From Candidatus Marinacidobacterium sp. (GTDB lineage Bacteria; Acidobacteriota; Vicinamibacteria; Marinacidobacterales; Marinacidobacteraceae), in NCBI GenBank assembly GCA_965220965.1, contig OZ244852.1, positions 2,752,001 to 2,816,000 on the forward strand: a stretch of DNA of 64,000 nt, written 5' to 3'. A program made the translations under genes and the position numbers. The notes beneath the pieces are model-generated. The model did no database searches. It worked only from the letters and a program-made list of their open reading frames with translations, and was not told where the DNA came from. Position 1 is the first letter of the stretch; every line of letters starts with the position of its first letter. Shown here one piece after another: positions 632 through 55,580 of the stretch.

Positions 632-2584
632 CTAAGCCGATTTCCGGGCGTATCGGAGCGGGATCGCCACCAGGAACCAGCCGAGCGCGAGGAACACCAG
701 GAATCCCGGCGCCCCCGAAGGCGTCGCCACCGGAGTCGGCAGCGTGAAGTTCCAGACCGCGAACCCGGAGAGCGCCACCCCCATCAGGGCTTCGCCGGCG
801 ATGAGTCCCGAAGCGATCAGGGTTCCGGCGCTCTCGCCCCGGGTCCGTCCGGCGGCGTCCATCGACGCCATCCTCCGGTCCGCCAGCCAGCGGAAGCACC
901 CGCCGACCAGGATCGCGAACGTCGTCTGGAGCGGCAGGTACATCCCCACCGCAATGAGCATCGGGGACGGCGCCCGGATCAGGATGAGGAACAGGCACAG
1001 CGCCAGCCCGAACACCACGAGCGGCCACCGCATGTCCCCGCCGACGATGCCCTGGGAGAGCAGCGCCATGAGGCCCGCCTGCGGCGCCGGCAGCTCTTCG
1101 CCTCCGACCCCGATGCCTCCCGCCGCGATGTCTCCCCGGTGGAGCAGCATCATCGGCAGTACGAGGAAGGCCGAGGCGAAGACCACGCCGATGATCTCGG
1201 CCCACTCCATCCGGAACGGCGTTCCGCCGAGGAGTTGCCCGACCTTCAGATCCTGGAGCATGTCTCCGGCGACCGCGCAGGCGCAGCAAACCACCGCGGC
1301 CACCCCGAGAACCGCCGTCACCCCCTGGGTTCCGGTGACGCCGAGGAAGGTCATGAGCAGCGCCGCCAGCAGCAGCGTGGAGATGGTCAGCCCGGACACC
1401 GGGTTCGAGGAGCTCCCGATGACGCCGACGAGGTACCCGGCCACCGCGGAGAAGAAGAACCCGGCCACGATCATCACGATCGCCGAGCCGAGCGCTCCCA
1501 GCGGCTGCCCGGTGTAGTAGTAGTAGAGGAGGAACGTCGGAACGATCAGGGCGACGACCCCGGCCGTCGTCCAACTGAACGGGATGTCGCGTTCCTTCTC
1601 GTCGCCGCTGGCGGCCGGACCGTGGCCGGAGCGAAGCTCGGCGATCGAGCGGCGGAGTCCCTCCCCGAGCGACTTGCGCATCCGCAGCAGCGTCCAGACC
1701 GCTCCCGCGATCATCGCTCCGACCGCGATCGGGCGGACCAGTTCGGCCCAGACGACCCCGCTGACCGCGGCCCAGTCGGCGCCGGCGGACGCCAGCCGCC
1801 CGGCGTCGGCGAAGTCCGGGTTGAAGAACAGGACCGCCGGGATCATGAACCACCAGGCGAAGACGCCTCCGGAGAACGTCAGCGCCGCCAGCCGGGGTCC
1901 GATGATGTATCCGACCCCCAGATAGGCGGGCGAGGCCGCCGGAGTCGAAAACGGCAGGACCCCGGGCTGCGCCGCGGCGCCGAAGGACTGTCCCCCCACC
2001 GCGATCGCGCCCTGGAAGGAGCCGTAGCCGAAGGCGCCGGCGATCCGGTCGGTGAAGAGCTGGATGCCCTTCGAGTTCTTCAGGACCTCGATGAGCGCGC
2101 CGGCGCCCATCATCTGGAACAGCAGTCGCCCGCCTCCCCCGGCGCCGGCGCGGTGGATCTCGGCGGCGGCGACCGATTCGGGGAAGGGCAGCTCGGGGTC
2201 GTTCACCATGCTCCGCCGCAGGATGACGACGAAGAGGATCCCGAGCAGCCCCCCCACCAGCATGAGAAGCGTGCTCTCGAGGTAGTTGAACTCCTCCCAC
2301 GCTCCGGCCATCAGGAACGCCGGCAGCGTGAAGATGGCGCCGGCGGCGAGCGCCTCGCCCACCGACGCGGTCGTGCGGGCGATGTTCTCCTCGAGCAGGC
2401 TGCCGCGGAACAGGCCGCGGATCACGACCATCGAGACGACGGCGGCCGGGAACGTCGCCGCGACCGTCTGGCCGGCGCGGATCCCCAGATAGGCGTTCGC
2501 CGCTCCGAGGACCACGGCCATGAGCAGGCCGAGCAGGAGAGCCCGGAGGGTGAACTCGCGGGGGGTTCCTTGGGAATTCGCCAT
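632..2584 (-). CDS. OPT family oligopeptide transporter
   Basis: 650 aa polytopic; EFTLRAL, NAYLGIRAG, ENIARTTASVGE, LPFPES, SSNPVSG, DLKVG and APQA motifs; GGAGG SD. Confidence 0.93.
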   Translation of the reverse strand: MANSQGTPREFTLRALLLGLLMAVVLGAANAYLGIRAGQTVAATFPAAVVSMVVIRGLFRGSLLEENIARTTASVGEALAAGAIFTLPAFLMAGAWEEFNYLESTLLMLVGGLLGILFVVILRRSMVNDPELPFPESVAAAEIHRAGAGGGGRLLFQMMGAGALIEVLKNSKGIQLFTDRIAGAFGYGSFQGAIAVGGQSFGAAAQPGVLPFSTPAASPAYLGVGYIIGPRLAALTFSGGVFAWWFMIPAVLFFNPDFADAGRLASAGADWAAVSGVVWAELVRPIAVGAMIAGAVWTLLRMRKSLGEGLRRSIAELRSGHGPAASGDEKERDIPFSWTTAGVVALIVPTFLLYYYYTGQPLGALGSAIVMIVAGFFFSAVAGYLVGVIGSSSNPVSGLTISTLLLAALLMTFLGVTGTQGVTAVLGVAAVVCCACAVAGDMLQDLKVGQLLGGTPFRMEWAEIIGVVFASAFLVLPMMLLHRGDIAAGGIGVGGEELPAPQAGLMALLSQGIVGGDMRWPLVVFGLALCLFLILIRAPSPMLIAVGMYLPLQTTFAILVGGCFRWLADRRMASMDAAGRTRGESAGTLIASGLIAGEALMGVALSGFAVWNFTLPTPVATPSGAPGFLVFLALGWFLVAIPLRYARKSA

Positions 2585-2685
2585 GGGGCCTCCTCGGTCG
2601 CCAGCCCCTTGAGGCTCTGGGGGCGAGTCGCGTTATATCACCGGCGGACGCCGGTTCCCGCGTCCCCGGCTTGCCGCGCGACGCC

Positions 2686-3750
2686 TTACCGGTATCGGTG
2701 GGAGCGGCGGGGGCCCTCCTCGCCGAGCCGCAGACCGGTGTCGGCGGTGAGCTCGGGGCCGTCCTGGTCCCCTCTGCGGAGCGCCAGCCAGCCGGCGGCG
2801 GCGATCATGGCGGCGTTGTCGGTGGACAGCAGGATCGACGGAGTGAACACCGGAAGTCCCCGCTCGGCGCCCAGCTCCTGGAACCGCTCGCGCAGCGCCG
2901 AGTTCGCGGCGACGCCCCCGGAGAGCAGGATCGAGGCGGCTTCGACGGTCTCGAGCGCGCGCTCCACCGACCGGGCCAGCGCCCGGACGACGGCCGACTG
3001 GAAGGACGCCGCCAGATCGCGGATGTCCTCGCGCTCGAACGGGTCCTCGCCGTCCCCGACCGGCGCGATCCCGTCGCGCTCGATGAGCCGCAGCACCTGG
3101 GTCTTGAGCCCCGAGAAGCTGAAGTCCAGCCGGGCCCCGTCGGAGAAATGGGGCAGCGAGAACACGTGGGCGCCGGGGTCGCCTCGGCGGGCCAGACGAT
3201 CCATGATCGGGCCGCCGGGGTAGCCGAGTCCGAGCCGCTTCGCCAGCTTGTCGTAGGCCTCTCCGGCGGCGTCGTCGCGGGTCTTGCCGAGCAGCCGGTA
3301 GTCGCCGTCGCGCTCGCTCAGGAAGAGGCTGGTGTGCCCGCCGGAGACGACGAGCGCCAGCGCCGGATGGGGGACGTCCGGGCCGTCGAGGTAGCACGCC
3401 CGGATGTGTCCCTCGATGTGGTCCACGCCGATCAGCGGGAGCCCGCGGGCGAAGGCCAGCGCCTTGGCGAAAGAGACGCCCGCGAGGAGCGCCCCGATGA
3501 GCCCCGGCCCCCGGGTGACCGCCACCCCGTCGATGTCGTCGAGGCCGGCTCCGGCGTCGGTGAGCGCCCGGTCCACCACCGGGCGCAGGTTCACCAGGTG
3601 CTGCCTCGAGGCGATTTCCGGAACGACCCCCCCGTAGGGCGCATGCGCCGCGATCTGCGAAGACACGACGTTGGACAGCACCCGCCGCCCGTCCTCCACC
3701 ACCGCCGCCGAGGTCTCGTCACACGAGGTCTCGATCCCCAGGATCTTCAT
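2686..3750 (-). CDS. tsaD: tRNA N6-adenosine threonylcarbamoyltransferase TsaD
   Basis: ILGIETSCDET, GGVVPEIASRQH, HIEGH, VSGGHT, DDAAGEAYDK, FSFSGLKT, TDNAAMIA. Confidence 0.97.
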   Translation of the reverse strand: MKILGIETSCDETSAAVVEDGRRVLSNVVSSQIAAHAPYGGVVPEIASRQHLVNLRPVVDRALTDAGAGLDDIDGVAVTRGPGLIGALLAGVSFAKALAFARGLPLIGVDHIEGHIRACYLDGPDVPHPALALVVSGGHTSLFLSERDGDYRLLGKTRDDAAGEAYDKLAKRLGLGYPGGPIMDRLARRGDPGAHVFSLPHFSDGARLDFSFSGLKTQVLRLIERDGIAPVGDGEDPFEREDIRDLAASFQSAVVRALARSVERALETVEAASILLSGGVAANSALRERFQELGAERGLPVFTPSILLSTDNAAMIAAAGWLALRRGDQDGPELTADTGLRLGEEGPRRSHRYR

Positions 3751-5693: not shown

Positions 5694-6176
5694 TCAGGCA
5701 TTCGTGATCCGGTACCCCATCATGAGTTCGGAAACCCCGAACGCCCGCGCCAACCTGGGAATTGGCACATGCCGGACGGGCTTCAGAAGCGCCGACGGCA
5801 CGAGAAGGTTTGCGGCGAAGTGGTTGGCTTCCTTTTCCAGAGGATCGTCGTCCGCGGTCAGGTCAGAACGTCGCGGGAGCACGCGGTACCGCCCTGGGTC
5901 GGCCTCGTACGCCTCGCGGTGGAGTAGCCAGTGGCCCAGCTCGTGCCCCATCGTGAAGCGCTGTCTCGTGACCGGATCGGCGACGTTGACGTAGATCCTG
6001 CTGTTGGGGAAGTCGCAACATCCGGAGACGCGGTCCGAGAACTCCCCGAAGCCGGTGAAGACGAGTTCCGCGCCGTTCGCCTCGATCAACTCGGCGACCG
6101 GGATCGGCGGCGTCGGGATTGATGCGGTCAGTTCCGCGGCCCTTTGACGGGCTCTCCGGTAGTCGGGGCTCCTCAC
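5694..6176 (-). CDS. ImmA/IrrE family metallo-endopeptidase
   Basis: IYVN...RQRFTMGHELGH (HExxH)...EKEANHFAANLLVP...LARAFGVS; start uncertain (GTG 6176); the ORF-track extension to 6851 is likely spurious. Confidence 0.88.
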   Translation of the reverse strand: MRSPDYRRARQRAAELTASIPTPPIPVAELIEANGAELVFTGFGEFSDRVSGCCDFPNSRIYVNVADPVTRQRFTMGHELGHWLLHREAYEADPGRYRVLPRRSDLTADDDPLEKEANHFAANLLVPSALLKPVRHVPIPRLARAFGVSELMMGYRITNA

Positions 6177-6466
6177 GTTTCGACCCGCCAACTCATGATG
6201 CCCAACCTCCGGCTTCACAGCGTAGCTGTCAGGGAACCGCGAGCGAACGCTGTAGGTGTCGAAATCTACCACTTGCCATGAACGGTGATCTGTTCGTGAG
6301 GGCTCGAATATGACATCCACGGTCGTATCGCGCGCCGTTATCGGCTGTCGGACTGGGCGCCGAGAGTGAGCAGGCGGATCATCTCGACAGTCCCGGGTGT
6401 TGCCGGCTCCTCCGCGACGCCCGCGTGGCCTCCAGCGGCGGCCCTCCCCGCCACACCGCCCGCTTC

Positions 6467-6496
6467 TTGACAGGGAACCCGGCGGGACGGTAGGAA
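6467..6496 (+). promoter_or_regulatory. Putative sigma70 promoter of leader peptide/ABC operon
   Basis: Perfect TTGACA at 6467-6472; weak -10 TAGGAA at 6491-6496, 7 nt before ATG 6504. Confidence 0.45.
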
Positions 6497-6503
6497 TTGA
6501 CCC

Positions 6504-6779
6504 ATGCGAGGCGGTTGGCGGGGACTCCTGCGCTGGAGCGTGCTGCTTGCGCTCCTGCCGCTCGCGCTGGCGGCGGCTCCCCACTTCCACGACGACGGCG
6601 AAGTCGAGGACGGCCGCTGCGTCCTGTGCCAGGCCAACGAAGGCCCGGCCGTCATGGACGCGGATCCGCAGCCACCTCTCGCCGCTGTTCGCCACGCCTC
6701 GTTCGCCGGTGAGGCGGCGCCCCATGGCGACGCCTGTCTCGAGGGCCTTTCGGCCCGGGGCCCTCCCATCCGAGCCTGA
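6504..6779 (+). CDS. Secreted metal-binding leader peptide, DUF2946/CruR-like, with RGPP arrest-type motif
   Basis: Signal peptide, HFH, CVLC, C-terminal SARGPPIRA-stop; 137 nt upstream of ABC ATPase on the same strand. Confidence 0.75.
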   Translation: MRGGWRGLLRWSVLLALLPLALAAAPHFHDDGEVEDGRCVLCQANEGPAVMDADPQPPLAAVRHASFAGEAAPHGDACLEGLSARGPPIRA

Positions 6780-6916
6780 CAACACCCGGGCGGGCCCGCC
6801 CGCCCACGCCCGTTGTCGCGCTGACGCGGTGATTCCGCGTCCGCGCTCCATCCCCGACCAGGGGATCGTGTCCCGGAGACTCGTCTGGAGGCCCCGGGAC
6901 TCTCCGGAGGCTCTCC

Positions 6917-7705
6917 ATGAACCAGTCCGAGGACCGAGCGCGGTCCCAAACCACCGGGAACGGTTCGCTCGCCGTTCTTGAAGCCCGGGCGCTCTCGAAG
7001 CGCTACGGCGACACCGAGGCGGTGAGCGACCTCGACCTCCGGGTGCGTCCCGGCGAGATCTACTGTCTGCTGGGGCCGAACGGCGCCGGCAAGACGACCA
7101 CGATCCATCTCTTTCTCGGATTCGTGGATCCCACCTCCGGGAGCGTGCGGGTCGGCGGTCAGGACGTTTCCGAGGCTCCGCTGGAGTCCAAGCGCCGCCT
7201 CGCCTACATCCCGGAGCAGGTCATGCTCTACCCGAACCTGACCGGCCTCGAAAACCTCGAGTACTTCACCGCGCTCGGCGCCGGCGCCAACCGGAATGGC
7301 GCCGTTTCGCCCAGCGCGCTCGCTGACACCCTGGTCGCCGCCGGTCTCCAGCCGGACGCGGTCCGTCGCCGCGTGTCGGGCTACTCGAAGGGAATGCGCC
7401 AGAAGGTGGGCGTCGCCATCGCCATGGCGAAGCAGGCCGATGCGCTCCTGCTCGACGAGCCCACCTCCGGCCTCGATCCCCAGGCCTCGAACGAGTTCTC
7501 GGCGCTGCTCGGCCGACTGCGCGAGCAGGGCGCCGGCATCCTCATGGCGACCCACGACCTCTTCCGCGCCAAGGAAACGGGAACCCGCGTGGGGATCATG
7601 CGGGAGGGCCGCCTGGTCGACGAGTTCTCGACCGAAGAGATCGGACACGCCGATCTCGAACGCATCTACCTTCGCCACATGGCCCTGACGGGAGGTTCGT
7701 CATGA
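6917..7705 (+). CDS. ABC transporter ATP-binding protein
   Basis: GPNGAGKTT, YSKGMRQK signature, LLLDEPTSGLDP, THD. Confidence 0.95.
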   Translation: MNQSEDRARSQTTGNGSLAVLEARALSKRYGDTEAVSDLDLRVRPGEIYCLLGPNGAGKTTTIHLFLGFVDPTSGSVRVGGQDVSEAPLESKRRLAYIPEQVMLYPNLTGLENLEYFTALGAGANRNGAVSPSALADTLVAAGLQPDAVRRRVSGYSKGMRQKVGVAIAMAKQADALLLDEPTSGLDPQASNEFSALLGRLREQGAGILMATHDLFRAKETGTRVGIMREGRLVDEFSTEEIGHADLERIYLRHMALTGGSS

Positions 7706-9111
7706 TTCGTACGATCGCCAGAAAGGAATTCACCGATCTGCTTCGCGACGGCCGCTTCCGGTGGGCCGCCGCTCTGGTGGGAGCCCTGCTCCTCGTCTCC
7801 CTCGGCGCCGGATGGGTGCAGGCGGACCGGGCTGCGCGTGAACACGCGGCCGCCCAGGCGACCGCGCGGGATCACTGGGAGTCCCAGGGCGACAAGAACC
7901 CGCACTCCGCGGCCCATTACGGCATCTACGCCTTCAAGCCGCGCCTCCCGCTGTCGTTCCTGGACCAGGGAGTCGATCCGTACGCCGGAACCTCCGTCTG
8001 GCTCGAGGCGCATCGTCAGAACGAGTTCCTGATGCGCCCGGCGCAGGACCGGACCGCCGGCCAGCGCCTCGGCGCCCTGACCGCGGCCAGTGTGCTGCAG
8101 CACCTCGTGCCGCTGCTCGTGATCCTGCTCGGCTTCGGAGCGCTCGCCGCGGAGCGGGAGCACGGAACGCTCCGGCAGCTCCTGGCGGCCGGGGTCTCGC
8201 GGAGCCGTCTCGCCGTTGGCAAGGCGCTCGGCGTGGCGGGCGCGCTATCGCTGCTCGTCGTTCCCGCCGCCGTGCTGGGGGTCGCGGCCCTCGTGCTGGC
8301 GACGCCGGGTCCCGCAGCTTCTCCCTTCGCCCGCGGCGCGGTGCTGGTCGCGGTTTACCTCGCCTATTTCGCGGCCTTCATCGGGCTCGCGCTGGCCGTT
8401 TCCGCATGGGCCCGGACCTCGCGCGCCGCGCTCGTCGTGCTCCTCGGGATCTGGGTGGCGAACGGCCTGCTCGTCCCGCGGGTGGCGGTGGATCTCTCCC
8501 GCAACCTGCATCCGACGCCATCGGCCGTCGAGTTCGCGCGGGACATGGAGCGCGACATGGCGTCCGGGGCGCCCGGGATCGAACGGCCTGATCGCGCCGC
8601 GCTCCAGCAGCAACTGATGGAGGAACACGGGGTGCACCATGTGGAGGACCTCCCGTTCAACGAGGTGGGCGTCTATCTCCAGGCCAGCGAGGAGTACAGC
8701 AACCAGATCTTCGACCTGAACTACACCGATCTGTGGGACCGGTTCGAAAGGCAGGGACGGGTGCACGAGACCGTCGGGGTCATCTCTCCGCTGCTGGCGG
8801 TCCGGACGCTGTCCATGGGTCTCGCCGGGACCGATGTCGAACAGCACCGCCACTTCGCCGCCGCCGCCGAGGAGTACCGGCGGGATCTGATGCGCCGGAT
8901 GAACGGCGATCTCGCCGAGAACTCGCGCACCGGGGACACCTACATCGCCGACGCCTCGCTGTGGGAGTCGACGCCTCCCTTCGAATATGACGCCCCGACG
9001 CTGGGCTGGGTCCTGGCCAACCGGTCGCTCTCGCTCGGTGTGCTGGGGCTCTGGCTGGTCGCGGCGGTTCTGGCGGCGGGGGTCAGTTTCCGACGCGCCG
9101 AGGTGGCCTGA
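7702..9111 (+). CDS. ABC-2 type permease, DUF3526 family
   Basis: IARKEF, KNPHSAAHYG, LEAHRQN, AEREHGTLRQLL; ATGA overlap with ATPase. Confidence 0.85.
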   Translation: MIRTIARKEFTDLLRDGRFRWAAALVGALLLVSLGAGWVQADRAAREHAAAQATARDHWESQGDKNPHSAAHYGIYAFKPRLPLSFLDQGVDPYAGTSVWLEAHRQNEFLMRPAQDRTAGQRLGALTAASVLQHLVPLLVILLGFGALAAEREHGTLRQLLAAGVSRSRLAVGKALGVAGALSLLVVPAAVLGVAALVLATPGPAASPFARGAVLVAVYLAYFAAFIGLALAVSAWARTSRAALVVLLGIWVANGLLVPRVAVDLSRNLHPTPSAVEFARDMERDMASGAPGIERPDRAALQQQLMEEHGVHHVEDLPFNEVGVYLQASEEYSNQIFDLNYTDLWDRFERQGRVHETVGVISPLLAVRTLSMGLAGTDVEQHRHFAAAAEEYRRDLMRRMNGDLAENSRTGDTYIADASLWESTPPFEYDAPTLGWVLANRSLSLGVLGLWLVAAVLAAGVSFRRAEVA

Positions 9112-9113
9112 CC

Positions 9114-10556
9114 ATGATTCGTCGGGCTGTCTTCCGCCATGAATGGCGGCTTCTCCTCGCCGACCGGGCGCTCTGGATCGCGCTCGTCGGCTTCATCGCG
9201 CTGTTCGGCTACGCGCTGGCGAACGGAGCCGCGTGGCGATCGTTCCAGGACCGCACGGTCGAGGCCGCGCTGGCGGCTAGCGCGGAACGCGCCGAATCGC
9301 TCGCCAGCCAACTGGAGGACATCGCGGCCGGAGGGCAGCCGTCATCGCCGTTCCGGGATCCCCGGCGGGCGAACGTGCTCGGCGGAGCCGCTGGCGCGCG
9401 TTCCGCTGCGCTCGAGCCCGGTCCCCTCACCGCGCTCGCCGTGGGTCAGAGCGATCTCCTGCCCTATGTCTACGACGTCAGCATCTACACGAACGAGTCT
9501 TCCTTCCTGCAGAACGGGGAGGTCGAGAACCCGCTGAACCTGATGGTCGGCCGGTTCGACGCCGCGTTCTTCGTGATCTACCTGCTGCCGCTCGTGGTTC
9601 TCGCCATGAGCTTCCGCGTGCTCTCCGGCGAACGGGAACAGGGGACGCTGGCGCTGGCGCTGTCTCAACCGGTGTCCGCGCGGAGCCTGGTGGCTGCGAA
9701 GCTCACATTCCGGGCGCTCCTGGTCGTCGGGATGGCCATCGGGGTCTCGCTGCTCGGAGCGTTGGTGGCCGGGCAGGCGGGCGCCGACCGGATCCTGATC
9801 TGGTGCGGAACCGTTCTCGTCTACTCGCTGTTCTGGTTTGCGCTCGCCGCGTGGGTGAACAGCCTCGGGCGGTCCTCCGCCTGGAACGCGACGGTGCTCG
9901 TCGGAGCATGGCTCATGCTCGTGGTCGTGCTCCCGGCTGCGGGGAACATCGTGGCCGATGTGCTCCATCCCCTCCCGTCCCGCGTCGAGATGGTGACGGC
10001 CCAGCGGGAGGCCTCGAACGAGGCGGTCAACCGCCGCAGCGAACTCCTCGCCCGCTATCTCGAAGACCACCCGGAGATGGCGGAGGGAGTCGTTGACGCG
10101 AGCGAGAACTTCGCCGCGCTCTCCTGGGCGGCGACCGAGGCGGTGAACGAGCGCCTCGAAGAAGTTACGGCGCTCTACGACGAGCGGCTGGCCGGGCAGC
10201 GCGAGCTGATCGGTCGCTACCGGTTCCTCTCGCCGGCGCTCCTGGCGCAGGAGGCGCTTCTCGACGCCGCCGGGACCGGCGACGCCCGTTTCCGCGAGTT
10301 CCAGACGCAGGTCCGCGATTTCGCCGAGGAGTGGAGGCTCTTCTTCGTCCCGAAACTCCTGGCCGGTGAGCTGATGACGGCCGACGTGCTGGATTCGGCC
10401 CCCGGGTTCCGCTTCGAAGACGAGGCTGGCGCAGAAGTCGTGCGCCGGGCGAGCGTCCCCTTCGGCGCGCTCTTCCTGCTGCTCGGGCTCGTCTCCGGCG
10501 CGGCCGCGGTGCGGCTGGGGCGGGTCAAGCCTCGCGCAGAAGGGAACGACGGCTAG
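9114..10556 (+). CDS. ABC-2 type permease, DUF3526 family (second subunit)
   Basis: LAVGQSDLLP, ENPLNLMVGRFD, GEREQGTL, PLPSR. Confidence 0.85.
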   Translation: MIRRAVFRHEWRLLLADRALWIALVGFIALFGYALANGAAWRSFQDRTVEAALAASAERAESLASQLEDIAAGGQPSSPFRDPRRANVLGGAAGARSAALEPGPLTALAVGQSDLLPYVYDVSIYTNESSFLQNGEVENPLNLMVGRFDAAFFVIYLLPLVVLAMSFRVLSGEREQGTLALALSQPVSARSLVAAKLTFRALLVVGMAIGVSLLGALVAGQAGADRILIWCGTVLVYSLFWFALAAWVNSLGRSSAWNATVLVGAWLMLVVVLPAAGNIVADVLHPLPSRVEMVTAQREASNEAVNRRSELLARYLEDHPEMAEGVVDASENFAALSWAATEAVNERLEEVTALYDERLAGQRELIGRYRFLSPALLAQEALLDAAGTGDARFREFQTQVRDFAEEWRLFFVPKLLAGELMTADVLDSAPGFRFEDEAGAEVVRRASVPFGALFLLLGLVSGAAAVRLGRVKPRAEGNDG

Positions 10557-53260: not shown

Positions 53261-55580
53261 ATGCGCCGTTTCTTCGGGATGGTCTTTCGGACGGCGTTTG
53301 TCGTCCTGATGCCGGCGACGGTCCTTGCGGGGGGGCGTTGCGGCCCAGGCGCCTGGCGTTTCGGGCTCGGTGGTCGACCAGCAGAGCCTCGCGCTGCCCG
53401 GCGTCCGGATCGAGCTTCACACCGAAGACGGGGCCCGGGTCGAGGTCGCCATCACCCGCGGTGACGGCTCGTTCGCCATCGACGTCGCCCCCGGGACCTA
53501 TTCGCTGACGGCGCACCTCGATGGCTTCGAGCCGGTCGAGCGCGCCGTGACCGTCACGTCGGAAGGGGTCGTCGTCGACCTGCTCATGGCGATCCGTCCG
53601 TTCGAGCAGACGCTCCCCGTGACCGCCGCGCTCCCGGAGATGGCGACGGAGCAGGTCGTCCCTTCGCGTCAGGTCGAGCAGCGGGTCGCCCAGGACCTCG
53701 CGCTCTCGCTCCGGGAGCAGGCCGGGGTGACGGCCCTGCGGCGAGGCCAGGTGAACCTCGACCCTTCGGTGCGCGGCCTCTACGCCGAACAGATCGGCGT
53801 CTTCGTGGACGGCACGCGCACCTTTGCGGCGGGACCGGCGCGGATGGACTCCGAACTGAGCCATGTCAGCCCCCACGCGCTCCAGTCGATGCGGGTCGTT
53901 CGCGGACCGTTCGCGCTGACCTGGGGCGCCGGAACGCTCAGCGCCATCCGCGTCGAGACCTTCAAGCCCGACTTTCGCGCGGACGGGTTCCGCTTCGGCG
54001 GGCGGGCCGGCTTCAACTACGGGAGCAACGGGGCCACCAAGGACGGCTACGGCAGCTTCTGGGGCAGCAGTGAGCGGTTCCGGTTCACCCTCCAGCACAA
54101 CACCCGCGCCGGCGACGACTACACCGACGGCAACGGAGAGGCGGTGCCCGGCGGCTACGAGTCGTTCGACACCCAGTGGAGCGTCGGAGGCCACCTGACC
54201 GAAGACACCCTCCTTGAGTACAGCGGCGGCCACCAGCAGCAGAACGACCTCGAGTATCCGGGCCGGATCCTCGACGCCACCTTCTTCACCACGAATTCCC
54301 ATGCGGTGGAGCTGACGCACGCTCCGGACGAGGGCCTCGTCCGCGAAGTTGTGGCGCAGGCCTACCGGAACGCGAAAGACCACCGGATGAACAACGACGA
54401 CAAGCCGACGGCGATGGACATGCCGGGGCGCAGGCCTCCCTTCGCCCTCGACGTGGACCTTCCCGCCGAGGCGACCACCACCGGCGGCCGGTTCCACGTC
54501 GCCATGGGCCGGGGCGCCCTCCGCTCCCGGATCGGCGGCGACATCTACCGGTTGGATCAGACGGCGACCCGGACGATCTCCCGGCGCAGCAACGACATGG
54601 TCCTGTTCAGCGACCGGGTCTGGCCTGACGCCCGGGTGAGCAACGCCGGCGCCTACGCGCAGCTCGTGCGTCGGTTCGCCTCGGCGACGCTCGGCGGGAC
54701 CGTGCGCCTCGACCATGAGCGCGCCGATGTTGGCGAGGTCTCTCCGTACTTCCGGGACAACGCCAGCCCCGACCTGTCACAGCGCAACACGAACCTGAGC
54801 GCCGCCGCCAGCCTGAGCTGGAACGTGCGGCCCGGCGTGGTCGTGAACCTCGGCGCCGGCCGCGCCGTGCGCAACCCGTCGGCGCTCGAGCGCTACTCCG
54901 ACCGCTTCCCCGCAGTGAAGTTCCAGACCGCCGCCGAGTTCATGGGGTCTCCGGAGCTCACGCCCGAGAAGAGCCGGGAGCTCAACGCCGGCGCCGTCAT
55001 CGTGTACCGCGACCTGGTGGTCGAGGCCGACGTGTTTCACCGGGTCATCGACGACTACATCACCGTGGCGCCCGATCCGACGCTGACGAAGCGGCTCCCG
55101 CTCAGCCCGCCGGTGGTCTTCCGCTACGTGCAAGGGGGGCAGGCGCGCTACATCGGGGGCGACCTGCGCGTCCAGATCTTCGTGAACTCCTGGCTGACCG
55201 CCCACAACACCGTCTCGTATGTCCAGGGAGACGACACCCGTTTCGATGAACCCCTGTTCGGCCTTCCCGGCCTCGAAAACCGGTTCGGGCTGCGGGCCGA
55301 TGCGCCAGGCCGGAACGTCTGGGCCGAGTTGGTCGTTGCGTCGCAGGCGGAGCAGGACCGGGTCGCGGCCCAGCGGTTCGAGGTTTCCACCAAGGGATGG
55401 ACCACGATCGATCTGAACGCCGGCTTCGCCCTCCGGGATGGGATGGAGATCCGGGCGGGCGTCCAGAACCTGACGAACGCGTTCTACGCCAACCACCTCA
55501 ACTCGTTCAACCCGTTCACGAGGCTGCGCATCGCCGAGGTGGGACGCAGCGTTTACGCCGGCGTGACGGTCGGTTTCTGA
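53261..55580 (+). pseudogene. OprC/NosA-like TonB-dependent receptor with +1 frameshift in signal-peptide G7 tract
   Basis: SD AAGGAGGT, ATG 53261 signal peptide frame; mature frame (VAAQAPG...) is reached only if G7 at 53329-53335 is G6; plug DPSVRG, PARMD, VVRGP; DHRM; terminal F. Confidence 0.8.

Follow-up and report, generated by a model that had tools for sequence, protein, structure and literature searches.

The small open reading frame (ORF) at positions 6504–6779 of the window, by which we mean the whole 64,000-nucleotide stretch analysed, probably encodes an arrest leader of the CruR/CutF type that regulates the genes behind it, namely an ABC transporter ATPase and two DUF3526 permeases. 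We place the probability of this reading at about 0.8, a figure that applies to the core claim alone, with the sub-steps rated separately. From its sequence, we read the leader as a diverged metal-sensing arrest leader; its stalling and metal response would be those of its homologues. Leaders of the CruR/CutF kind are already known; the pairing of such a leader with DUF3526 transporters was found in no paper. The locus is laid out as follows.

6467–6496, + strand: putative promoter (TTGACA at 6467–6472, 18-nt spacer, −10-like TAGGAA at 6491–6496)
6504–6779, + strand: leader ORF, 91 aa plus TGA (6777–6779), putative CruR/CutF-like exported arrest peptide
6504–6578, + strand: signal-like N-terminus as read from sequence, aa 1–25, with R2, R6, R10 and hydrophobic core SVLLALLPLALAAA
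6582–6590, + strand: H27-F-H29 motif, H27 and H29 kept in at least 90% of 18 members
6618–6629, + strand: C39-V-L-C42 (CxxC) motif, C39 and C42 invariant in 18/18 members
6756–6767, + strand: R85-G86-P87-P88, putative arrest motif, R85, P87 and P88 invariant in 18/18 members
6778–6817, + strand: stem-loop 1 of the minimum-energy fold (GACAAC 6778–6783 with GUUGUC 6812–6817; inner hairpin 6788–6794/6799–6805)
6818–6846 and 6850–6866, + strand: two further spacer hairpins of the minimum-energy fold
6884–6920, + strand: start-site hairpin, predicted in the pair table to pair the Shine-Dalgarno (SD) sequence (GGAGG, 6906–6910) and AUG (6917) of the ATPase gene
6917–7705, + strand: ABC transporter ATPase, 262 aa (PF00005, ABC_tran, 1.9e-28)
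7702–9111, + strand: permease 1, 469 aa, NosY-like ABC-2 core plus DUF3526 (99.5 bits), ABC2_membrane_2
9114–10556, + strand: permease 2, 480 aa, ABC-2 core plus DUF3526 (99.6 bits)

The leader ORF is a real gene. Inspection of the letters and the ORF list bore out the initial annotation, which had described a 91-aa ORF with a signal-like N-terminus, HFH and CVLC motifs, and ARGPP three codons before the stop. The N-terminus, MRGGWRGLLRWSVLLALLPLALAAA, reads as a basic n-region, a hydrophobic core and an A-x-A end, and a hydrophobic N-terminal stretch is present in all 18 aligned members; at the other end, A84-R85-G86-P87-P88 is followed by I-R-A and TGA. The genome is 71% G+C, and 264 of its stop-to-stop frames of at least 50 aa have an R[AG]PP that lies at most 12 residues from the end. 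Adding a hydrophobic N-terminal stretch, a CxxC and a motif no more than three residues from the end reduces these to five frames of identical build. By codon-position G+C, the ORF (0.84/0.57/0.79) looks less like a gene than its neighbours do (0.70/0.48/0.86).

Conservation extends across related loci. Searches with tblastn detected the leader peptide in 14 of 17 orthologous loci from the same taxonomic family; one of the three missed ends before the ATPase gene, and another (L019) was recovered by its motif in L051, which is presumed to be the same place. The initial annotation had suggested looking for such ORFs upstream of DUF3526 operons in related genomes. A motif scan of a wider collection placed a CxxC...R[AGSD]PP ORF directly 5' of the ATPase gene in 65 of 80 loci, and three further loci have variant Cys motifs, such that a leader precedes the orthologous operon in 68 of 80; the other 12 comprise two without upstream DNA and ten without such a leader. 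The distance from CxxC to R[AG]PP is 42 residues in 15/15 orthologues (counted by hand from the second CxxC in the case of L035) and 42–44 in four paralogues. A family profile retrieved 245 cluster representatives at E ≤ 0.001. Nearly all of the 150 representatives listed are 80–130 aa long, and 137 of 143 checked share the same build, with a CxxC-to-motif distance of 42–47 residues (mode 44); the H-x-H is kept in at least 90% of 141 wider relatives in the alignment.

The median dN/dS of the leader is 0.58 (28 pairs), and its parts differ. Residues 79–89, the last 11 considered, show 14 non-synonymous against 54 synonymous differences, whereas the 34-residue linker shows 388 against 172, its sequence drifting at fixed length. 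These counts indicate that the ending is selected as protein and that the linker is kept in length only. Downstream of PP, the window reads IRA* and a same-genus relative IRLDNSRRR*, from different frames of similar DNA, suggesting that residues beyond the stall point do not matter.

Matches to DUF2946, the family that the initial annotation had proposed searching, were obtained for relatives of the window peptide rather than for the peptide itself, which matches nothing in Pfam or NCBIfam even at E ≤ 10. Weak matches occur in 14 of the 18 members at E ≤ 10 (best 3.2e-4) and in 48 of 141 profile hits at E ≤ 0.01 (best 7.1e-7), and a scan of the genome for DUF2946 yielded one paralogue only, at 18.3 bits against a cut-off of 23.7. 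There are five such leaders in the genome, the window ORF and four paralogues, and three of the four paralogues precede TonB-dependent receptors; one of these receptor operons continues with CobN, and another with an amidohydrolase and a cation-efflux protein. Together, the 68 of 80 loci, the invariant Cys pair and R-x-P-P, the fixed spacing, the paralogues before TonB receptors and the weak DUF2946 matches in relatives support the arrest-leader reading.

We then considered the nucleic acid around the leader. A consensus scan returned no canonical promoter, and no intrinsic terminator was found. In 12 of 14 orthologous loci, a TTGAC lies 36–38 nt upstream of the leader ATG, with an A/T-rich hexamer about 8–17 nt upstream of it. 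If used, the putative promoter might start the transcript 0–2 nt before the leader ATG, making the mRNA leaderless or nearly so. The spacer between leader and ATPase gene is, as previously described, 137 nt long and foldable: the region 6756–6935 folds at −94.2 kcal/mol compared to −78.2 ± 4.8 for 200 shuffles (z −3.3; one shuffle as good), and the GACAAC/GTTGTC stem that had been proposed is in the minimum-energy fold. A second proposed stem stood only in part, since the repeats CCGGAGA (6873–6879) and TCTCCGG (6901–6907) exist but do not pair in the predicted fold. The SD sequence is nonetheless predicted to be sequestered, through local hairpin arms at 6884–6898 and 6903–6920, while 6870–6877 pairs into the ATPase coding region.

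We propose the following sequence of events. Transcription would begin at or just before the leader ATG, and the signal-like N-terminus would bring the nascent chain to the Sec translocon. The ribosome would then stall on R85-G86-P87-P88, as published RAPP and RGPP behaviour suggests; by analogy with the CruR toeprint (PMC12992588), the Pro87 codon (6762–6764) is expected in the P site and the Pro88 codon in the A site. At such a stall, the CxxC would be 45 residues and the HxH 58–60 residues from the peptidyl-transferase centre, distances that would put the His2Cys2 cluster just outside the exit tunnel. If the cluster binds metal or is oxidised, the pull on the chain may change, and with it the length of the stall. 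Following both studied precedents, the ABC genes would be expressed more readily in the stalled state. We lean slightly towards CruR logic, under which an adequate metal supply would end the stall and shut the operon down, because the paralogous leaders stand before operons for TonB-dependent uptake and some relatives have DUF3526 systems next to such receptors.

The coupling of the stall to the ATPase start is the weakest part of this explanation. Our tentative proposal, held at somewhat less than even odds, is that the stalled ribosome frees the sequestered start site directly or via refolding of the spacer, because the RNA of a sister subtype strongly suggests the same. In the consensus fold of 21 subtype-B loci, CAUCUCUC (+11 to +18 from the P-site codon) pairs with GAGAGAUG immediately upstream of the ATPase AUG; this pairing survives one C-G to G-C swap, and the two inner hairpins covary. 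The model is clear for this sister subtype, with the helix that masks the start site predicted to lie under the stalled ribosome. In the window, the 5' end of stem-loop 1 lies 16 nt past the first base of the P-site Pro codon, and equivalent stems begin at +15 to +17 in a same-genus relative and a neighbouring genus, as counted on the sequences. The fold prediction for the window gave 0.0 expected base pairs between stall footprint and ATPase start site, and masking the footprint left start-site accessibility at 0.36–0.37. Over 60 distinct loci, footprint and start site make contact over at least 4 bp in 30, and masking raises accessibility by at least 0.1 in only 14; the contact is absent in subtype A of Vicinamibacterales-labelled MAGs and in subtype C.

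Masking opens no start site in the window, a gap that a transcriptional route would close. Coupling might proceed as in CruR, with stalled and queued ribosomes keeping Rho off a C-rich site at the leader end or spacer start, and release of the stall letting Rho terminate before the ATPase gene. This would alter the coupling step only and sits inside the preferred explanation; we regard it as possible, at distinctly less than an even chance. C exceeds G by 0.14–0.18 over 6720–6860, the spacers of 15/15 orthologues examined also have more C than G, the genome holds two Rho_RNA_bind matches above cut-off, and the long G+C-rich spacer resembles the 162-bp cruR-bfrG spacer (PMC9426467). However, the C-rich stretch is predicted to be tightly folded and thus poor for Rho loading, its C excess reaches only about the 95th percentile of the window, and a pure Rho model has no need for the SD and AUG to be sequestered, as they are predicted to be in the window and relatives.

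Other readings concern the ORF itself. Its product may mainly be a working periplasmic metal-binding partner of the ABC system, acting in chaperoning or substrate delivery, with no regulatory role for RGPP. We consider this improbable, even with a signal-like N-terminus, a conserved His/Cys cluster and a constant place beside the transporter, and even though cofitness data first led to DUF2946 being put forward as a copper homeostasis protein (bioRxiv 10.1101/072470). It does not fit a linker free to change at fixed length, frame-shifted residues after PP among close relatives, or strong constraint that falls, apart from the Cys and His, on the terminal arrest motif alone; moreover, proteomes are reported to avoid RAPP and RGPP strongly, other than where small exported upstream ORFs end (PMC12992588). 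The partner and arrest-leader roles do not exclude each other. Still less probable is a secretion monitor like SecM, ApdA or ApdP that reports Sec activity and not metal: a small exported peptide with C-terminal R[AG]PP is the defining build of that class (PMC7897499, PMC10987492), but the downstream genes encode an ABC-2 transporter and not sec or yidC products, paralogues head TonB-receptor operons, and the model has no role for the invariant Cys and conserved His pairs. A chance open frame in G+C-rich DNA, the conserved element being RNA only, is very improbable: although long spurious frames abound, with a 385-aa frame overlapping the ORF on the opposite strand, and although the ORF has weakly gene-like codon-position G+C, the amino-acid motifs are maintained across 33–40% identity, the last 11 codons favour synonymous differences and the family profile recovers the same build.

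The arrest-leader reading also bears on the transporter. No TonB receptor lies between leader and ATPase gene in the window, in agreement with the initial annotation; DUF3526 systems adjoin TonB-dependent receptors in some relatives. The conserved residues of permease 1 are H68, H72, E102, H104, H382 and H384, of which the five histidines are kept in at least 97% of 76 sequences; those of permease 2 are H285 and H319. Among solved structures, the permease 1 profile matched NosY only (E 1.1e-6), and the ten best Foldseek matches of its model (pLDDT 80.9) were all NosY chains. The transporter is a NosY-like ABC-2 machine with periplasmic histidine clusters, and what it handles in the periplasm is most likely a transition metal or a complex of one, for which zinc or copper are the leading candidates. 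The leader probably gives an uncharacterised DUF3526 transporter family a link to metal handling.

Among known systems, ApdA, ApdP and the Streptomyces lividans set (Fujiwara et al., 2025; PMC12992588) resemble the window peptide in being small exported proteins that have RGPP close to the C-terminus and are encoded upstream of a gene on the same strand. That study describes RAPP and RGPP as causing robust arrest unrelieved by EF-P, RGPP as the strongest and most avoided such motif, and CruR as stalling in vitro. The first characterised of these peptides regulate Sec or YidC components, and the main text makes no mention of ABC transporters.

CutF of Rhodobacter capsulatus (Ozturk et al., 2023, PMC9973294; bioRxiv 10.1101/2025.02.05.636593), the second studied precedent, is likewise described as a leader that is exported, carries a Cys motif and has a proline stall site at its C-terminus; the stem-loop behind it shields the next gene's start site. 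The window peptide has all four properties used in CutF-like screening: it is shorter than 150 aa, has PP among its final 15 residues, begins with a signal-like stretch and has a neighbouring gene on the same strand no more than 1000 nt away. In contrast, CutF has CxxxC and an EF-P-sensitive PPP, its target is a multicopper oxidase rather than an ABC transporter, and its stem-loop is close to the stall site, whereas the start-site hairpin in the window lies ~120 nt downstream with no predicted footprint response.

CruR (Bp2923) of Bordetella pertussis is the prototype of Pfam DUF2946 (Roy et al., 2022; PMC9426467). As described there, it is similarly the small first ORF of its operon, the distance from its CxxC to the motif is fixed, a long spacer rich in G+C separates it from the regulated genes, and it heads a TonB-receptor operon as paralogues of the window peptide do. 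The window peptide differs in lacking a DUF2946 HMM match, in having RGPP instead of RAPP and a spacing just outside the 45 ± 1–2 of CruR and DUF2946, in its conserved HxH nine residues before the CxxC, and in its length (91 versus about 145 aa). Its target is a DUF3526 ABC-2 transporter, neither a TonB receptor nor a PepSY gene is present, and the Rho-dependent mechanism belongs to CruR, being a rival reading only in the window.

For the transporter, ZnuGHI (CC1518–1520) of Caulobacter crescentus offers a lead only: it too has one ATPase and two ABC-2 permeases, adjoins a TonB-dependent receptor and is under Zur repression in zinc-replete conditions (Mazzon et al., 2014; PMC4176598). A DUF3526 match was present in one of 14 control genomes, that of Caulobacter vibrioides, and ZnuH and ZnuI are just candidates for the DUF3526 proteins of Caulobacter. 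Their regulation is transcriptional, and the account of that study reports no leader peptide. By sequence, permease 1 has a single relative of solved structure, namely NosFY of the NosDFY(L) copper-delivery machinery (PDB 7o0y and related entries), which also combines an ABC-2 permease with a separate ATPase. The window operon has two different permeases and no adjoining NosD or NosL gene, and permease 1, at 469 aa compared to about 270, adds a periplasmic loop with conserved His and a helical DUF3526 insert.

The features around the putative leader lie as follows in the window, which has a G+C content of 70.8%:

6467-6472, plus strand: TTGACA element of a putative promoter
6491-6496, plus strand: TAGGAA, a -10-like A/T-rich hexamer
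6504-6779, plus strand: leader ORF of 91 residues, with H27-F-H29, C39-V-L-C42 and A-R85-G-P-P88, followed by I-R-A and TGA
[quoted passage not shown]
6917-7705, plus strand: ABC ATPase, with its ATG at 6917
7702-9111, plus strand: permease 1 (DUF3526)
9114-10556, plus strand: permease 2 (DUF3526)
upstream of the leader, minus strand: IrrE/M78 peptidase gene

The leader is thus the first gene of the operon, with its upstream neighbor on the opposite strand and a 137-nt spacer between its stop codon and the ATPase ATG; in most relatives this spacer measures 76-218 nt. Each of the four sequence words singled out in the initial annotation is present where it had been placed. The N-terminus, MRGGWRGLLRWSVLLALLPLALAAA, is basic and hydrophobic, with three arginines, a 14-residue hydrophobic core and an A-x-A end, as judged by inspection. 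Frames with R[AG]PP near their end are common in this genome (264 cases), as are long open frames, and the codon-position G+C of the leader is only weakly gene-like; it is its conservation that marks the ORF as real. A 385-residue minus-strand frame (5694-6851) was considered as a true gene here and rejected: its family support, an IrrE/M78 domain, is confined to residues 283-383, its composition is gene-like only up to about position 6200, and the part opposite the leader looks like a G+C-driven extension of the peptidase gene.

Among 24 genomes of the same family, 18 carry a permease orthologue, at 72-77% identity; 16 genomes from two sister families carry none. An ORF 33-40% identical to the window peptide was found by tblastn in the same place in 14 of 17 orthologous loci; of the three loci without such a match, one is cut before the ATPase and a second (L019) was recovered by motif in a locus taken to be the same place (L051). 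When 14 orthologues and four paralogues are aligned, C39, C42, R85, P87 and P88 are invariant (18/18) and H27 and H29 nearly so. All 15 orthologues keep exactly 42 residues between CxxC and R[AG]PP, and all 15 end in TGA, the motif being RGPP, three residues short of the stop, in the window and RAPP, one residue short of it, in most orthologues. Eight close orthologues gave a median dN/dS of 0.58, with 14 non-synonymous versus 54 synonymous differences in the last 11 codons and 388 versus 172 in the linker; these counts indicate that the ending is selected as a peptide, whereas the linker is kept in length only. After PP, the window reads IRA-stop and a same-genus relative IRLDNSRRR-stop, from similar DNA read in different frames, which argues that residues past the stall point are not under protein selection. 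Such a pattern of conservation would be expected of an arrest leader, unlike that of a folded domain.

In 12 of 14 orthologous loci, a TTGAC motif is found 36-38 nt ahead of the leader ATG, and in the window it forms part of the TTGACA at 6467-6472. If the putative promoter at 6467-6496 is used, the leader mRNA would be leaderless or nearly so. A simple consensus scan called no promoters, the putative TTGACA/TAGGAA pair included, and no intrinsic terminators.

The initial annotation had tied the leader to a DUF3526 transporter, and this pairing holds well beyond the window. A scan with the permease alignment, keeping one genome per species, yielded 80 loci with permeases of 50-77% identity; 65 of them carry an ORF with CxxC and R[AGSD]PP directly before the ATPase, and three more carry one-Cys or CxxxC variants, for a total of 68. 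Two of the remaining loci are without upstream DNA and ten are without a leader. Record titles assign the loci to Gemmatimonadota/Longimicrobiales (including Candidatus Palauibacter), Acidobacteriota (Vicinamibacterales, Holophagales) and Latescibacterota MAGs, submitter labels that may be unreliable. Permeases of 70-77% identity occur in this set (L039-L118) under the titles Gemmatimonadota, Acidobacteriota, Latescibacterota and even Gammaproteobacteria and Bifidobacteriaceae MAGs, a pattern that reflects either misassigned bins or movement of the operon between lineages living together. Judged by their CxxC to R[AG]PP spacing and their ending, the leaders form three main subtypes, with two singletons (spacings 44 and 45) outside them:

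Subtype A: spacing 42, ending RAPPA-stop; 30 loci, together with the window (RGPPIRA-stop) and the same-genus relative
Subtype B: spacing 45, ending RAPPLPISL-stop; 22 loci, and one with a longer tail
Subtype C: spacing 46; 9 loci

A TonB-dependent receptor gene stands just upstream on the same strand in eight loci, and downstream in two or three. In about 18 subtype-B loci the first DUF3526 permease pair is followed by another, 35-38% identical to it and not accompanied by a further ATPase (L045-L047, L053, L054, L057, L058, L060, L063, L064, L071, L073, L089, L104, L106, L108, L111 and L118; about 7030-9400 in each). Two other loci, L040 and L055, have an extra DUF3526 permease pair upstream of the leader. 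Tandem leader ORFs, with spacings of 44 then 42 and both ending in R[AG]PPA, precede a single ABC operon in L095 (about 2200-3090) and L096 (about 1730-2600).

Both permeases match DUF3526 (PF12040) strongly, at 99.5 and 99.6 bits against a gathering score of 25, and each also contains ABC2_membrane_2; the genome holds four PF12040 matches above the cut-off. Searched against solved structures, the permease 1 profile matched NosY only (E = 1.1e-6). An AlphaFold model of permease 1 built from 33 sequences (pLDDT 80.9, pTM 0.82; loop 97-124 below pLDDT 50) retrieved NosY chains of the NosDFY(L) copper-delivery machinery at all of Foldseek ranks 1-10, with TM-scores of up to 0.73 on the target. 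At this locus, no NosD or NosL was found among the ORFs around the operon. Compared with NosY, permease 1 has an added loop between its first two membrane helices and a helical DUF3526 insert before the last; from the helix order, both additions would face the periplasm, given an N-terminus inside the cell. At least 97% of 76 sequences keep H68, H72, E102 and H104 in the loop and H382 and H384 in the insert, and permease 2 retains H285 and H319. The HxxxH (H68, H72), ExH (E102, H104) and HxH (H382, H384) motifs in these two predicted periplasmic parts form a candidate metal site. A protein atlas search returned DUF3526 clusters only, with no functional names, and among 14 named control genomes the domain occurred in Caulobacter vibrioides alone. 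Caulobacter znuGHI is described as a Zur-repressed gene set next to that for the zinc receptor ZnuK, encoding one ATPase together with two ABC-2 permeases (PMC4176598). These permeases, ZnuH and ZnuI (CC1519 and CC1520), may be the DUF3526 proteins of that organism, which we offer as a lead. The modelled NosY-like fold, the periplasmic histidines and the possible identity with ZnuGHI would fit, though not prove, a metal-related role for the transporter.

The genome encodes five leaders of this build, including that of the window. The other four have a signal, a His/Cys cluster and R[AG]PPA followed by the stop, located as follows on contig G000:C1, outside the window:

stop at 116826: paralogous leader, locus L034
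stop at 444770: paralogous leader, locus L036
stop at 1397793: paralogous leader, locus L035
stop at 2304911: paralogous leader, locus L037

Three of the four directly precede TonB-dependent receptors; one of these operons continues with a CobN-type chelatase, and another contains an amidohydrolase and a cation-efflux (cation-diffusion-facilitator) gene. The fourth paralogue precedes a 390-residue protein without a Pfam match. The window also contains a TonB-dependent-receptor-like match at about 53346-53960 (G000:C1:2805346-2805960), 43 kb downstream of the operon, and a motif scan found no leader-type ORF beside it.

RAPP and RGPP are reported to cause robust arrest that is not relieved by EF-P, and CruR stalls in vitro with its two proline codons in the P and A sites (PMC12992588). 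For CruR, the E. coli PURE system proved workable. The CruR stall is described as keeping its operon on, with copper acting through CxxC to release the stall and allow Rho termination (PMC9426467); for CutF, periplasmic copper is reported to prolong the stall, upon which a stem-loop over the next start site melts (PMC9973294; bioRxiv 10.1101/2025.02.05.636593). Since the stalled state corresponds to expression in both systems, we adopted the same rule for the window leader and hold with fair confidence that, by analogy, stalling would turn the operon on.

The coupling may occur by unmasking of the ATPase start site, a route that we hold at somewhat below even odds. The stretch 6756-6935 is predicted to fold at -94.2 kcal/mol, compared with -78.2 ± 4.8 for shuffled sequences (z = -3.3). 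Two spacer stems had been drawn in the initial annotation: GACAAC/GUUGUC (6778-6817) appears in the predicted fold, with an inner G+C hairpin, whereas the second (6873-6879/6901-6907) is absent, 6884-6898 pairing instead with 6903-6920 and covering both SD and AUG. In the window (at 6778), the same-genus relative (L040) and a neighboring genus, the first stem starts 15-17 nt past the P-site proline codon, at the edge of the ribosome footprint, and this position is constant despite the differing positions of the stop codon. The expected number of pairs between footprint and start site in the window is 0.0, and start-site accessibility stays at 0.36-0.37 when the footprint is masked; over related loci, the thermodynamics of footprint masking gave no consistent switch and are not counted as support for unmasking in the window.

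Clearer wiring is predicted for subtype B. A consensus fold computed from 21 loci forms a helix between CAUCUCUC, which occupies +11 to +18 counted from the P-site codon, and GAGAGAUG, situated 8-10 nt ahead of the ATPase AUG. The pairing survives one swap of C-G for G-C, and the two arms enclose a pair of covarying hairpins; much of the 5' arm of this modelled helix would be hidden beneath a stalled ribosome. The L-P-I-S-L tail is conserved as nucleotides (CCCAUCUCUCUG), and its pairing partner is GAGAGAUGG, immediately ahead of the ATPase AUG (e.g., L054:3117-3256; loci within L046-L118). Nearly all of the 21 loci retain UCU at a synonymous site, a sign that the RNA itself is under selection. 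The subtype-A loci nearest the window pair CUGACUC, which overlies the stop codon, with GAGUCAG immediately ahead of the AUG. A window counterpart of the subtype-B helix, GAGCCU (6772-6777) with AGGCUC (6908-6913), was considered and set aside: these 6 bp cost 3.9 kcal/mol over the minimum-energy fold, making the helix possible and not favored.

Coupling through Rho, with transcription terminating before the ATPase gene once the stall is released, is nearly as probable. Rho-domain genes are present in the genome, and C exceeds G by 0.14-0.18 over 6720-6860, at about the 95th percentile of the window, yet this C-rich stretch is predicted to be folded.

Kinship with the DUF2946 proteins, to which CruR belongs, had been suggested at the outset, and the window peptide itself returned no match to the DUF2946 HMM at E ≤ 1 or E ≤ 10, nor to any NCBIfam or Pfam model. 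A six-frame scan of the genome with PF11162 (gathering score 23.7 bits) gave a single score, 18.3 bits, for the paralogue at C1:116623-116820. Among the 18 aligned family members, 14 match DUF2946 at E ≤ 10 (best 3.2e-4). A profile of these members, searched against 1.84 billion cluster representatives, recovered 245 proteins at E ≤ 0.001, and nearly all of the 150 matches listed are 80-130 residues long. Within the best 143 of the 245, 137 have CxxC and R-x-P-P no more than 12 residues from the end at a spacing of 42-47 (mode 44), with RAPP in 101 and RGPP in 29; DUF2946 was matched at E ≤ 0.01 by 48 of 141 profile matches scanned. Because its relatives match DUF2946 weakly or in part while the window peptide does not, the window leader belongs, on these profile comparisons, to an outlying part of the DUF2946/CruR superfamily, one barely touched by the Pfam model. 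The branch escapes that model, and domain-based surveys consequently miss it.

The mechanism itself is not new, since CruR and CutF have been known as metal-sensing arrest leaders from 2022 on, and a catalogue of 2025 covers RAPP/RGPP ORFs upstream of varied genes. In the literature searched, no paper names DUF3526 and none has the leader-DUF3526 pairing. Neither the CruR nor the CutF papers use "ABC", "DUF3526" or "permease" in main text or figure legends, and the 2025 RAPP paper (PMC12992588) does not contain "ABC transporter"; the supplementary neighbor tables of all these papers may list such cases. In passages from some of the papers naming both DUF2946 and ABC transporters, no link between the two was found.

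A bolder reading, to which we assign a probability of about 0.3, is that the H-x-H-(9)-C-x-x-C-H cluster would fold with zinc or copper on leaving the ribosome or translocon, pull on the chain and release the RGPP arrest. As a sensor facing the periplasm, it would thereby control how much is made of a ZnuGHI-type, NosY-like DUF3526 machine that moves metal, or a TonB-imported metal complex, through the periplasm. If true, this would be the first functional and regulatory assignment for the whole DUF3526 family, and a single arrest-peptide design would have been recruited to one transporter in three length variants (42, 45 and 46), across MAGs whose labels name several phyla. The tight and wide link between leader and DUF3526 (68/80 loci) is a testable hint that a transition metal is what these ABC-2 transporters handle. 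The occurrence of three leader subtypes on a single type of operon, one of them with a very clear helix that masks the start site under the stall footprint, also provides a natural comparison of stall wiring.

Set against known systems, the leader shares with CruR and DUF2946 proteins the CxxC motif, R[AG]PP near the C-terminus and a position at the head of an operon, separated from the next gene by a long spacer. CruR has 45 residues (± 1-2) from CxxC to RAPP and the window branch 42, one below the published range, the distance being fixed in both. The CutF-like screen is described as selecting proteins under 150 residues with PP in the last 15, a signal peptide and a same-strand neighbor within 1000 nt (PMC9973294); the leader has 91 residues, PP at 87-88, a putative signal by inspection and the same-strand ATPase 137 nt downstream. 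Unlike the Sec/YidC-monitoring peptides ApdA and ApdP, which lie directly upstream of a sec or yidC gene, it precedes an ABC ATPase and two DUF3526 permeases. Overall, the leader is real and well conserved, a diverged representative of an already known class of regulatory leaders, and its target is new and informative.
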